39,235 nucleotides of DNA from Candidatus Aenigmatarchaeota archaeon (GTDB taxonomy: Archaea > Aenigmatarchaeota > Aenigmatarchaeia > GW2011-AR5 > JACRAC01), in NCBI GenBank assembly GCA_016219465.1, contig JACRMW010000021.1:1-39235 (forward strand), read 5' to 3'. Below, piece after piece: positions 11,728 to 33,056 of the stretch. Position 1 is the stretch's first letter; each line of letters starts with the position of its first letter. The position numbers were made by a program, and so were the translations under genes. The notes under the pieces were generated by a model, which searched no databases, was not told the DNA's origin, and saw nothing but the letters and a program-made list of their open reading frames with translations.

Positions 11728-11852
11728 AGGACTTGAATGACAGGTATTTTAGTCAAAGTCCTTATTGAGAACTTTCACATGGTGTACACAAAGACCTTTA
11801 GTCTTTGTGTACAGCGTGTAAAAAGACTTCAGAATACCTGAAGTCTTTTTAC
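11728..11852 (+). repeat. hairpin repeat family H6 (about 98 nt shared with 32959-33056) plus one extra 15-bp hairpin
   Basis: 13-bp stem tgtacacaaagac/gtctttgtgtaca (11783-11813); 15-bp stem gtaaaaagacttcag/ctgaagtctttttac (11818-11852). Confidence 0.9.
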
Positions 11853-13325: not shown

Positions 13326-14153
13326 ATGAAAAGAATATTTGTTGCTGGATTTGCAGTGATTTTATTATTCATAATAATCCAACAGCCTGCTCATGCTGAC
13401 GAGGATAAATGCAGGCAGTGGTTTAATGACGTTGTCAAGACTTCTATAAAGAATGCCGGTTTGGAATATTCTGAGAAATTAGGGGCTTTTACAGCAGCTA
13501 TTTTCCAGTGCGGCGAGAACGGCAAACAATCGTGGTGCAAGCTTCGTGAAAGGGCGGCAAACAAATGCTGGATAAATTCATATGTTGGCGCAGGAGGGGC
13601 AATGCAATTCATGCCAACGACATGGAGTGGCACAGGCATTCCAAGCTCTGCATGCATCAGACTGGCATCATCCTCAAGATTCAAGGATGTTGATTATATG
13701 TGCGGACCAAGACTTTCAAATTGCGCGCAAGAAGCATGGTCTGAGTGGGTAAATGAGCATGGATTTGATACTAAAGACATTCCGCCAAAAAATCTGGTGC
13801 TGAATTATTATTATAAAAAGCGGGCAGAACGAATTGAGAAAATAAAAAAGGATTTAGCGCCTTGTTTTAAGACAATGGCTGCTGGTGAAAGAAACTGGAA
13901 AAATGGCTATAGAACAGATGGAGATGGCGATGGAATAACAGACATAACAAATATCTATGACAGTTTTGCATCAGGAGCAGCATATCTGTCAGCAATACTT
14001 GCTTCAAATGATGATATTGCTTCTGCAGCAGGAGAATATAATGGAGGGCCAAATTGGCAGAATTTTGCAGAATCAAGAACATATTCAGCCAGAGTAACCG
14101 CTTGCTATAATGATTTTGTGAAAAATAGATTTTTTGTTGTAGATAAAGTATAG
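13326..14153 (+). CDS. secreted lytic transglycosylase (SLT)-like protein
   Basis: Signal peptide ending AHA-DE. GAGGAMQFMPTTW and EYNGGPNW resemble SLT motifs (GLMQ...T, AYNAG). Confidence 0.6.
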   Translation: MKRIFVAGFAVILLFIIIQQPAHADEDKCRQWFNDVVKTSIKNAGLEYSEKLGAFTAAIFQCGENGKQSWCKLRERAANKCWINSYVGAGGAMQFMPTTWSGTGIPSSACIRLASSSRFKDVDYMCGPRLSNCAQEAWSEWVNEHGFDTKDIPPKNLVLNYYYKKRAERIEKIKKDLAPCFKTMAAGERNWKNGYRTDGDGDGITDITNIYDSFASGAAYLSAILASNDDIASAAGEYNGGPNWQNFAESRTYSARVTACYNDFVKNRFFVVDKV

Positions 14154-14280
14154 ACTTTATCTTCATGGTGAATATAGACTTTATCTTCATGGTGAATATA
14201 TATTCAACTGAAGATTCAGGTCAGGTTTGCTGACCATGAATCTGCAACATTAGTGGACTTTCAAAGAAAGTCCACTTTCT
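14146..14280 (+). repeat. composite hairpin element family H1, copy A, with an internal 24-nt duplication
   Basis: tatagactttatcttcatggtgaa occurs twice (14149-14172, 14173-14196), followed by ggtcaggtttgctgacc and gtggactttcaaagaaagtccac. Confidence 0.9.
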
Positions 14281-14702
14281 TGTTGTAATTCATATTCAGG
14301 CAAGATTCCTTGATCTGCACAAGCGCTGAGGGCAGCTGAATTCTTATTTGACTGAAGAAATCGTGAATATTCTCCCTTGCTTACGTTGTCATCTCCTTTT
14401 TCAATCCCTTTTCCATAACAAATATCAATAAACTGCTTAAATCCTTTAAGATAGGTTTCATGAGTTTTCTTTCCTAACTCACTCCAGTCTTTTTTTATTC
14501 TTTTAATATCATCTTTCTTCATTTTCTCAAACTCTTCTTTATTCTTAGGACAACCGTTTTTCAGTTCGTCTTCAAACAATCTATATACTCTCCTGCCTTC
14601 TGGACCTAGTTGTTTTGCCATTTCATCTATACTGCCTGCATAACATGGGGTTGTTGTCATGGAAAACATAAGCGCGTATGGAGCAATTTCTCTTACTTTC
14701 AT
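14250..14702 (-). CDS. hypothetical secreted Lys/Glu-rich protein
   Basis: 150-aa ORF with a hydrophobic N-terminus. The last 9 codons are encoded by the H1 hairpin. Confidence 0.4.
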   Translation of the reverse strand: MKVREIAPYALMFSMTTTPCYAGSIDEMAKQLGPEGRRVYRLFEDELKNGCPKNKEEFEKMKKDDIKRIKKDWSELGKKTHETYLKGFKQFIDICYGKGIEKGDDNVSKGEYSRFLQSNKNSAALSACADQGILPEYELQQESGLSLKVH

Positions 14703-19943: not shown

Positions 19944-20409
19944 AGCCCCCGGAGGGAATCGAACCCCCAACCTTTTGATATCATGAAAATAGAATATTTT
20001 CATGATCCAGAAAAGCTTTTGCTTTTCTAGAATCTCAAAGAAGTGGAAGCTTCTTTGAGCATGAAAATACTCATTTACAATTCCGAGAATGTTTTATTTT
20101 CGGAAAACACTCGCTCATCACAAGATTTTGATACGTCATACCACCAGTCTTTTCATGGTGGACATGCGTCCACCTGAAAATTCAAGTCAATTTCATTGAC
20201 TATGAATTTGACCGATGGATACGTGGTCAAATATGATTTGACCCGAATCTTCAAAATGACATATTGTCATTTTAGAAGATACACGAAATCTTTTCACATT
20301 ATTATTTTTCTTGCTCGCAATATCAAATACAAGTCAAACGCTCTATTCTCCTCAAGCGAACGCTTTCGCGCTAGACACGCTCGCTTGAACCAGATTGAGC
20401 TACGGAGGC
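19944..20409 (-). tRNA. tRNA-Thr(UGU) with two introns: 43 nt in the D-loop and about 348 nt at the canonical 37/38 position
   Basis: Exons 20409-20388, 20344-20328 and 19979-19944 join to a 75-nt cloverleaf: GCCUCCG UA GCUC AAUCUGGUUA GAGC G UUUGA CUUGUAA UCAAA AGGUU GGGGG UUCGAUU CCCUC CGGGGGC U. All stems pair, with G-U wobbles at 4:69 and 50:64. No encoded CCA. Confidence 0.7.
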
Positions 20410-22989: not shown

Positions 22990-23268
22990 GTTTGAACCCT
23001 CATATTATTCTTATTATGAATGAGTTTCAAACATAAGGCGAAACTTGTTTTCACCTCTCGTTTTTGAAACCCAATATTATTTTTGCGGTTTAATAAATCT
23101 TCAACTATTCACATAGCTAGAGATTTCATTGATAAAACCCCACTCTATCATTATATATGTCAAGAAGCTATTTATACCTGAATCTGACTTTATGGAAATA
23201 TATCTATCAAATTCAGGTTTATAGTGAAAACTGCCTCATCCAAACTCTAGAGCGTTTTCATTGTAGGT

Positions 23269-23352
23269 AAAGTATAGACTTTATCTTCATGGTGAACATG
23301 TGTTCACCTGAATCTGCAACATTAGTGGACTTTCGAAGAAAGTCCACTTTCT
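23269..23352 (+). repeat. composite hairpin element family H1, copy B (lacks the middle hairpin)
   Basis: aaagtatagactttatcttcatggtgaacatgtgttcacctgaatctgcaacattagtggactttcgaagaaagtccactttct. Confidence 0.9.
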
Positions 23353-23360
23353 TGGATATT

Positions 23361-30567: not shown

Positions 30568-31509
30568 TTATTTGGTATATATAGATTTTTTTCTCCTCCT
30601 GTATATTGCCACACTTATCAGCAATGCAGCAATAATAACAATAACTGCAATAAATAGAATATAATCCGGCTGCGCAGCCATTGCTGCTGGCAATGAGACT
30701 ATTGGAGAGAGTTTGCCAGTATCTTTATTCTGGGGTTCTTGATAAACTGTTTTGTTCTCAGTCTTCAATGGCTCTTCTGGCAATATGATATCTGTTTTAT
30801 CTGATGTTGTATTGCTGGATTTGTTTTCAGTATTATTAATTATCTCAACCCCTCCTGAATATCCACTTCCAGATAAAGGAGATATATCATTCTCTGCCGG
30901 CGCAGTGTATAAACGACACCCTGCTCCTATTTCTGTTATAACAACAAGACTGGCAAAATCTTTGCATTCCAGTGTCTTGAGAAGATTTATTGTGTATATC
31001 AATGCATCTGACGAGCCTCCTAATATTGTCAGCTGTCTTTTTTCCTCGCTAAGGATTACAATGGATTCATCATCTGGATTGTTCCTGATGCTCTTTGCGC
31101 TGTCTAGTATAGGATCTAATGAATCCTCTTTTCCAATCATGATAATATCTTTTACGCTGTTAAAGTCTTTCTCAGAAAGAAATCTACTGCTGCTTATTTT
31201 ATATGTTCCTGCGAATTCATTGATTCTCACCTGTTCTTTTGCTATGATAGTATTTCCGAGGGCTATGATATATGAATCATCAGAACCTGTTATAAACCCG
31301 CGGATGCCTGATCCTGGTTCATAATAGTTTCCTGTTATGATAGCAAAATCTCCTTGCAAAGATTTAGGAAGAGATTTTGCTATATCATGACTAATCCTGG
31401 TAGAATCGGTTATATTCCCTGTTATAATAAAAGGCGCAACTAATATCACAGCCAACAACACAAGGCCTGCAATGATTACATAGGCATTGTCCCATGGGTG
31501 GTTTTTCAT
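30568..31509 (-). CDS. surface protein with N-terminal anchor and C-terminal TM; paralogue of the N-terminal domain of the upstream 1045-aa protein
   Basis: GSGIRGF...EQVRINEFAGTYKISSSRF...LTILGGSSDALIYTINLLKT aligns with GSGIDGF...EQSRTNELAGVYRITSSKF...LYAIAGSSDTLLCAIDMLKT. ATG (MKNHPWD) at 31509. Confidence 0.6.
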   Translation of the reverse strand: MKNHPWDNAYVIIAGLVLLAVILVAPFIITGNITDSTRISHDIAKSLPKSLQGDFAIITGNYYEPGSGIRGFITGSDDSYIIALGNTIIAKEQVRINEFAGTYKISSSRFLSEKDFNSVKDIIMIGKEDSLDPILDSAKSIRNNPDDESIVILSEEKRQLTILGGSSDALIYTINLLKTLECKDFASLVVITEIGAGCRLYTAPAENDISPLSGSGYSGGVEIINNTENKSSNTTSDKTDIILPEEPLKTENKTVYQEPQNKDTGKLSPIVSLPAAMAAQPDYILFIAVIVIIAALLISVAIYRRRKKSIYTK

Positions 31510-31531
31510 TTTTATCAACTTAGTCTTGTTA

Positions 31532-31810
31532 AAATGACTTTCTTCGAAAGTCGTTTTGTTCTTGTATAGGAAAGTATATGACATATTATTATTTCCATTG
31601 CAAGACACGCAGAAAGCAAAGCTTTCTGGTGCACCAAACAACGTATGTTGTTTGTGTGTTTAGAGGAATTGCGAAGCAATTCCTCTTTGTTCTTGTAAAT
31701 AAAGTATAGACTTTATCTTCATGGTGAACATGTGTTCACCTGAAGATTCAGGTCAGCTTTGCTGACCATAATCTGCAACATTGTGGACTTTCGAAGAAAG
31801 TCCACTTTCT
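31532..31810. repeat. compound array: flip-loop hairpin (31532-31563), H2 inverted copy (31611-31686) and H1 copy C (31701-31810)
   Basis: ggtgaacatgtgttcacc (31723-31740), ggtcagctttgctgacc (31751-31767), gtggactttcgaagaaagtccac (31783-31805). Confidence 0.9.
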
Positions 31811-31831
31811 AGCTCGTGTTGTTCGCTTGAA

Positions 31832-32859: not shown

Positions 32860-32958
32860 ATAATTATAGAATTGGGTTTAATATATGTTTTTGCGAGTTA
32901 TGCGACATCTAGAATTATCTTTCTGCTTCTCTATACAACCTATGTTCTTTAAAAATAG

Positions 32959-33056
32959 AGGACTTTGAATAACATGTGTTTTGGTCAAAGTCCTTATTGA
33001 GAACTTTCACATGGTGTACACAAAGACCTTTAGTCTTTGTGTACAGCGTGTAAAAA
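32959..33056 (+). repeat. hairpin repeat family H6, copy 2
   Basis: About 75 nt are identical to 11751-11825, including the 13-bp hairpin at 33015-33045. Confidence 0.9.

Follow-up and report, generated by a model that had tools for sequence, protein, structure and literature searches.

The window, by which we mean the whole stretch of 39,235 nucleotides analysed here, is contig C22 of a Candidatus Aenigmatarchaeota assembly of 996,718 bases in 104 contigs (36.5% G+C, about 84% complete), with an archaeal gene content that includes an XPD-type helicase, a DUF655-type protein and intron-bearing tRNA genes. It holds three copies (A, B and C) of H1, a gene-less repeat of about 120 bases that consists of four DNA hairpins, together with several further hairpin elements, one of them inside a tRNA intron. 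H1 is described below as an LR carrier (left hairpin, linker, right hairpin and T-rich tail) with a twin-hairpin (TH) unit in it; H2 is an abundant element built on the same LR plan, and D is a TH unit in a different carrier. The features concerned are as follows.

1-56, + strand: partial H2 copy, cut by the contig end.
14138-14283, + strand: H1 copy A, a full composite (from sequence, alignment and folding).
14142-14161, + strand: left (L) hairpin of copy A.
14149-14172 = 14173-14196, + strand: perfect 24-nt tandem duplication in copy A.
14186-14240, + strand: twin-hairpin core of copy A, followed by the linker TCTGCAACATTA.
14253-14275, + strand: right (R) hairpin of copy A, followed by the tail TTTCTTGT.
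19944-20409, - strand: tRNA-Thr(UGU) gene, read by eye; one intron lies in the D-loop, and a long one in the anticodon loop holds the carrier and D.
20130-20299, + strand: IS200-derived, gene-less (PATE-like) carrier that holds D, GATACGTCATACCACCAGTC ... CTTTTCACAT.
20152-20206, + strand: TH unit D, 55 nt, TTCATGG-TGGACatgcGTCCA-CCTGAA-aa-TTCAAG-TCAATttcATTGA-CTATGAA, with T-runs on both sides.
23262-23354, + strand: H1 copy B, with the L hairpin, the first TH hairpin only, linker, R hairpin and tail.
31560-31693, + strand: neighbouring LR-type element of another subfamily, TCTTGTATAGGAAAG...CCATTGCAAGA, middle hairpins, TTAGAGGAATTGCgaaGCAATTCCTC, TTTGTTCT.
31694-31812, + strand: H1 copy C, the four-hairpin reference form, directly 3′ of the tail (TTTGTTCT) of that neighbouring element.

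A blastn search of the whole assembly raised the number of H1 copies in the genome to at least ten, with seven full ones on other contigs (C44, C8, C60, C51, C21, C86 and C31), three of these at contig ends. Full copies are 92-97% identical to copy C, copy-to-copy matches have E values of 1e-27 to 1e-53, and the contexts of the ten copies are unrelated to one another. The consensus reads TGTAGATAAAGTATAGACTTTATC TTCATGGTGAACATGTGTTCACCTGAA GA TTCAGGTCAGCTTTGCTGACCA(T/C)(G)AA TC TGCAACATTA GTGGACTTTCGAAGAAAGTCCAC TTTCTTGT, in which the LR carrier is TGTAGATAAAGTATAGACTTTATC ... TGCAACATTA-GTGGACTTTCgaaGAAAGTCCAC-TTTCTTGT; TGTAG on the left is able to pair with CTGCA in the linker, which would enclose three hairpins. 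As single strands, copies A, B and C fold with z scores of -6.6 to -10, none of 200 shuffles folds as well, and the hairpins are very stable on either strand. The initial annotation had placed copies at 14146-14280, 23269-23352, 31701-31810 and 20147-20201; the sequences there are as described, with element limits that are now wider. Its three hairpins in copy C are present but do not make up the complete set, because a fourth at the left end, GATAAAGT-atag-ACTTTATC, had been overlooked. At copy A, the convergent open reading frames (ORFs) 13326-14153 (+) and 14250-14702 (-) both end inside the element, so that their last codons and stops are H1-derived.

The differences between copies were reported initially as hairpin modules gained, lost and duplicated. 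Copy B does lack exactly the middle hairpin, hairpin 2, which is missing between CCTGAA and CATGAA, that is, between two TGAA repeats that bound a gap of 27-28 nt. The 24-nt duplication at the left end of copy A is perfect, as had been noted, and the first hairpin there carries one mismatch; the duplication consists of TATAGACTTTATCTTCATGGTGAA twice, followed by TATAT, and its ends have a TATA microhomology in common. A similar 15-nt duplication is found in a copy of the related element H1b on C52. Because D also has two hairpins, the two-hairpin state is older, and a deletion is the simplest account of copy B. The loss in B and the duplication in A thus look like footprints of replication slippage at hairpin bases and not like module shuffling: gain of modules holds for the family at large, as shown by TH carriers with and without their insert and by a TH-less H1-like element, but shuffling inside H1 does not, its changes being one deletion and one duplication at 4-nt direct repeats. 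Decay is seen elsewhere too. The right hairpin of the C86 copy is decaying, and the right TH end is degenerate (CCACAA or CCATAA) in seven of the ten copies, which indicates that the unit that multiplied was the composite and not TH.

Covariation among the ten H1 copies is not significant and is no evidence on its own. Paired cells make up 97% of the total and 34 of the 46 pairs are invariant; double changes occur at two pairs (C-G to T-A in A and C44, and A-T to G-C in C8), against about nine disruptive stem changes, and the covariation score was matched by 16 of 500 shuffles. The excess of compensatory changes proposed in the initial annotation is therefore absent among copies of H1, with 2 compensatory and about 9 disruptive changes, and strong between families.

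That comparison between families rests on a hairpin frame, T[AT]CATGG-N(10-22)-CCTG[AT]A, which has 131 matches in the genome, compared with 0 for the reversed pattern. The inserts in this frame comprise 46 distinct sequences, 39 of which pair perfectly over 5 bp or more; 30 different 6-nt arms occur among them. The mean number of contiguous pairs is 5.02, as against 1.44 ± 0.21 in shuffles (shuffle maximum 2.15), and the W...W′ positions of the frame co-vary as well, as TA...TA or TT...AA. Covariation between TH families is thus very strong. Genome-wide, 667 perfect hairpins were counted where 58 were expected from shuffling. Lineages that spread keep their structure while single insertions decay, which is the pattern expected if propagation of a mobile element needs the hairpin.

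The TH unit of H1 is the 55-nt segment formed by hairpins 1 and 2, with two-fold symmetry (TTCATGG-X-CCTGAA-ga-TTCAGG-Y-CCATGAA), 7-bp inverted ends (TTCATGG/CCATGAA) and a bulged T/A at the base of each hairpin. It interrupts the 3′ arm of the left hairpin at CTTTATC^..^TCTGCAAC, with TC on either side. A single H1-like element at C14:7962-8040 has the long left hairpin, TTGTAGATAAAG...CTTTATCTACAA, uninterrupted and without TH, and reads CTTTATCTACAAC at the corresponding position, that is, CTTTATC^TACAAC. The same frame with other stems occurs at about 28 full-length places and at many places as a single hairpin, also in a TACATGG...CCTGTA variant. A carrier unrelated to LR, CATACCACCAGTC-TTT-GACTGGTGG (GATACGTCATACCACCAGTC-TTT-GACTGGTGGTTGGCGTG), provides filled and empty forms: it has a bare TTT loop in four places (C96, C29, C53 and C82) and a TH unit in the TTT loop in three (C24, C87 and C84), the difference being exactly 57 nt, or 55 + 2. 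In the same-genus genome G001 this carrier is found in the empty form. The dinucleotides that flank TH depend on the composite family (TC in H1; TT in D, the C40 type and C42; TA in C31 and C73), and the filled and empty pair implies a 2-nt duplication, for which the basis is about five independent events in AT-rich DNA. TH units are therefore discrete insertions.

The element in the tRNA intron, which the initial annotation had taken for a fourth, diverged H1 copy, does lie in that intron and is not a copy of H1. Only the 55-nt twin-hairpin core is common to the two, at 65% identity; D is a TH unit inside an IS200-derived carrier inside a tRNA intron, and its composite family has seven near-identical copies. 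The paired changes described between H1 and D are present as reported (GGTGAAC/GTTCACC versus GGTGGAC/GTCCACC, and GGTCAGC/GCTGACC versus AGTCAAT/ATTGACT). D-type carriers, copies of which in this genome include C96:3753 and C82:17700, have a left hairpin CCAGTC-TTT-GACTGG and a right hairpin CATCGGTC-tatt-GACCGATG, followed by the end ...TTTTCACAT. An intact tnpA gene in G001 (C29, 1290-1990) is bounded by CCGGTCTTTGACTGGTGG and CCCTCGGTCtgtGACCGAGGG...TTCACAT, which are the hairpins and end of the carrier, and by this sequence match the D carrier is a gene-less PATE, a palindrome-associated derivative of an IS200-type element. The host gene was read by eye as tRNA-Thr(UGU) on the minus strand, with exons at about 20409-20338 and 19984-19944, the acceptor GCCTCCG/CGGGGGC, the anticodon loop CTTGTA and the T-arm GGGGGTTCGATTCCCTC. 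Neither ARAGORN nor Rfam called a tRNA at this locus (19944-20409). With its intron search, ARAGORN found 7 tRNA genes in about 1 Mb, 5 of them intron-bearing, and missed the tRNA-Thr gene of the window; most tRNA genes of the genome are probably interrupted by long or multiple introns.

The LR carrier of H1 forms one superfamily with the abundant H2 and with H1b. H1 and H2 have a common plan, in which RAAAGTATA marks the left side and the right side has GACTTTCgaaGAAAGTC and a T-rich tail, and this plan recurs in several further subfamilies. The abundance of H2 is about 45-57, from 48 core matches, 57 left ends and 47 right ends. H1b has at least six copies, with the CATTAG linker and tail as in H1. 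One H1b copy (C41:7130-7190) carries the H1-type right stem GGACTTT/AAAGTCC in place of the GGAATTGC/GCAATTCC of other copies (C65, C81, C15 and C49), either because the families swapped a complete hairpin module or because several compensated substitutions took place.

Immediately 5′ of H2 and H1, eight bases follow TTTnTTNT (TTTNTTNT) with an information content of as much as 1.5 bits per position; the sequence 3′ of the elements is random. The 3′ ends of LR elements, TTTGTTCT in H2 and TTTCTTGT in H1, themselves fit this 5′-flank motif, which explains the frequent head-to-tail placement (on C8, on C86 and at 31526-31812 in the window, where the tail of the 31560-31693 element is the 5′ flank of H1 copy C). 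Alternatively, these 5′ bases could belong to the element itself, as a weakly conserved segment. No copy-specific target duplication was detected for H2, as the left and right flanks are not correlated (permutation test, 16 offsets); none was found in the flanks of H1, and inverted ends are absent from H1 and H2 as wholes. Relative to neighbouring genes, for which crude ORF picks served as gene calls, H2 lies in tandem in 22 cases, between convergent genes in 9 and between divergent genes in 8, and orientation is unbiased. Neither an autonomous element nor any gene was found between an L and an R end in this genome. The 357-amino-acid ORF at 30568-31641 (-) has a TTG start inside the hairpin repeats at 31526-31641, so that repeat DNA encodes about its first 44 residues; translation probably begins at the ATG that gives MKNHPW.

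Among the 41 genomes searched, full H1 occurs only in this one and is missing from the 40 relatives, two of which belong to the same genus; the H1 pattern also had 0 matches in JGI metagenome contigs. Frame hairpins are more widely spread, with 131 here, 64 in G001, 33-34 in G014 and G025, and 0-15 in the remaining genomes of the order. The 17-mer of the R hairpin, searched against all species genomes, is so short that its matches are mostly chance, and two relevant Aenigmatarchaeota metagenome-assembled genomes, one with an H2-like element, were among them. Comparison of orthologous spacers, suggested initially as a check for presence and absence, showed H1 to be missing at two of the sites in relatives but yielded no clean pair of empty and filled sites, the spacers being too diverged to align. 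At site A, synteny around H1 is lost in G002, and in G001 the contig stops inside the permease gene; at site B, the orthologous spacer in G001 holds no H1 and resists alignment; at site C, an extra gene in G001 leaves no clean empty site. An ENA contig (ERZ27254845 k141_3169053) with the permease-SLT synteny, 87% identical, has no H1 downstream, and the DNA beyond is unrelated. The 87%-identical SLT orthologue on this contig stops earlier, at ...VKNNYFR*. Its stop region (2500-2520), TTCAGATAAATCG, and the left end of H1 (14128-14150 in the window), TTGTAGATAAAG, have AGATAAA in common, which may be insertion-point microhomology or may be chance.

Certain further families of repeats show 96% identity between this genome (G000) and G001, compared with 69-81% for genes. 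A 54-nt repeat core at 32954-33007 (also at 11733-11824) is 89-96% identical at six places in G001, whereas orthologous genes are 69-81% identical, which reflects either exchange of the repeat between species or strong constraint. At 434-610, between two minus-strand ORFs, a 67-nt unit occurs three times in tandem (99% and about 86% identity).

We propose, as the reading that we on balance favour, that H1 is non-autonomous selfish DNA, mobilised in trans, dependent on its fold and spread within one Aenigmatarchaeota species. A TH unit inserted into the 3′ arm of the left hairpin of an LR carrier gave the H1 composite, which then multiplied whole, reaching at least ten unrelated sites that include gene 3′ ends, where it supplies stop codons. 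Individual copies afterwards decayed, as in the deletion of B, the duplication of A and the right hairpin of the C86 copy. Propagation would depend on a folded single strand, most likely of DNA, because the lineages that spread always have perfectly paired, very different stems on a fixed frame (TWCATGG...CCTGWA), and mobilisation would be the work of a trans-acting enzyme. By analogy, the flank geometry of LR elements, with a T-rich 8-mer at the 5′ side and neither inverted ends nor duplication, suggests the single-strand ‘peel-and-paste’ type of movement.

The obvious candidate for the mobiliser, a Y1 transposase of the IS200/RAYT type, was rejected. The sole Y1_Tnp match in this genome is a truncated pseudogene (C33:30040-30270) that is not flanked by TH or LR hairpins, no TnpB was found in this genome, Y1_Tnp was absent from the TH-rich genomes G014 and G025, and across the 41 genomes there is no correlation with the abundance of TH. 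The end hairpins of the three intact tnpA loci in G001 match neither L, R nor TH, the C29 locus matching the D carrier. The pseudogene region (C33:29000-32382) keeps the motifs PKYRR and HIHIF, has lost the catalytic tyrosine region and contains two stops; it adjoins a long minus-strand reading frame, and an H2 copy lies at the contig end. Since these searches for the enzyme failed, we limit the claim to selfish DNA that is trans-mobilised and fold-dependent. A wider reading, which we offer only tentatively, is that H1, H2 and TH stem from a DNA mobilisation system of DPANN archaea that is structure-specific and so far undescribed, whose enzyme would read the bulged hairpin frame TWCATGG...CCTGWA and not the sequence, and whose elements would nest in each other, in IS200 derivatives, in gene ends and in tRNA introns, and so fill the spacers of a genome of about 1 Mb.

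An alternative that we regard as unlikely is that H1 and the other LR elements are small transcription units, either regulatory RNA or terminator cassettes, with AAAGTATA(AT) in the left hairpin as a TATA-like box and a transcript that ends at the T-rich tail, kept because the RNA structure is useful. RAAAGTATA in all L modules, a tail that resembles archaeal terminators, the great stability of the hairpins on both strands and the compensatory changes between families would all fit such units. However, H1 is not conserved even within the genus, its orientation relative to genes is unbiased, single copies decay, and copies overlap ORF ends and sit in a tRNA intron. Nor do positions upstream of genes support AAAGTATA as a general promoter motif: TTTATA and TATATA reach their maximum between -30 and -40 relative to the start codon, whereas AAAGTATA, with 10 upstream occurrences, has no clear peak. 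The initial annotation had been unable to assign the elements to a recognised family; in agreement with this, H1 belongs to a modular, dispersed family with conserved structure, and the window has 0 Rfam matches at the gathering threshold. The best match below it, to Intron_gpI, scores 24.9 bits, where 50 would be required. Counting the L motif against a reversed-genome control was uninformative. A C/D-box reading (AUGGUGA ... CUGA) was likewise discarded, as inspection by eye showed no conservation of the box across other TH families, and its presumed guide regions pair with themselves.

It is similarly improbable that no transposition took place at all, and that template switching, gene conversion and slippage between hairpin-rich spacers, with intrastrand templating that corrects palindromes, produced stem changes on both sides in the absence of selection. 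Such processes could account for three events at 4-nt microhomologies (the loss in B and the duplications in A and on C52), for the H1-type right stem in the H1b copy on C41 and for the 7 nt that the SLT stop region of the relative has in common with the left end of H1; yet the sharp common ends at about ten unrelated loci, the fixed 5′-flank motif and the precise 57-nt difference between filled and empty carriers, with inverted ends, are left unexplained. That TH units are ordinary MITEs moved as double-stranded DNA by an IS630-like or IS5-like DDE transposase, with incidental hairpins, is somewhat less likely still, for although the 7-bp inverted ends and the 2-nt flanking repeats (TC, TT and TA) agree with it, at least 30 arm variants that co-vary perfectly on a fixed bulged frame would be needless for an enzyme that binds double-stranded ends, and inverted ends and target duplications are both lacking in H1 and H2 taken whole.

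Movement of H1 as folded, trans-mobilised DNA would place it among several known kinds of element. REPINs are REP doublets mobilised by RAYT Y1 transposases (Bertels & Rainey 2011, PMC3116915), and, like TH, they join two short inverted hairpin units in one small non-autonomous element that is intergenic, multicopy and structure-selected. The stems of TH differ, so that no single long hairpin forms; in place of a GTAG-type REP head it has the frame TWCATGG..CCTGWA, no single-copy RAYT with flanking repeats was found, the host is archaeal, and TH nests in other repeats. BOX elements of Streptococcus pneumoniae (boxA-boxB(n)-boxC; Croucher et al. 2011, PMC3049150) resemble H1 in being modular, strongly folding and non-coding, with internal modules that vary in number, but the host is bacterial, the sequence is unrelated, and H1 changes by single microhomology events and one nested insertion and not by a variable count of boxB, which makes the likeness conceptual only. 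Closer to the LR elements, including whole H1, are the IS200/IS605-derived PATEs of Haloquadratum walsbyi (PMC3119063), with subterminal hairpins at both ends, neither inverted ends nor duplication, and a 5′ sequence that resembles their own 3′ end; for LR, however, no TnpA with matching end hairpins was found, and the same-genus tnpA matches the D carrier and not H1, H2 or TH. Correia/NEMIS elements and TA-duplicating MITEs of the IS630/Stowaway type are like TH in length (about 55 nt), in short inverted ends, in a 2-nt flanking repeat and in lying near genes and in repeats, although the flank of TH is not always TA (TC and TT occur too) and its stem covariation implies that the hairpin is recognised. 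Large censuses of MITEs and insertion sequences include DPANN genomes (PMC11602168, PMC13343696), and our literature search, which covered such DPANN censuses, found no description of H1, H2 or TH elements. On these comparisons, H1 would belong with REPINs, BOX elements and MITEs as a variant so far undescribed in the literature searched.

DPANN archaea have very small genomes, which are thought to be streamlined. Here, hairpins crowd the spacers of a genome of about 1 Mb, rewrite gene 3′ ends and swell a tRNA intron. For annotation, the elements lengthen or shorten adjoining ORFs, and tRNA finders miss genes with element-bearing introns. With three H1 copies at contig ends, the elements would also be a likely cause of assembly breaks. 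If the elements are mobile and recognised by their fold, they would provide strain markers for uncultured Aenigmatarchaeota and a natural system for the recognition of single-stranded DNA in archaea.
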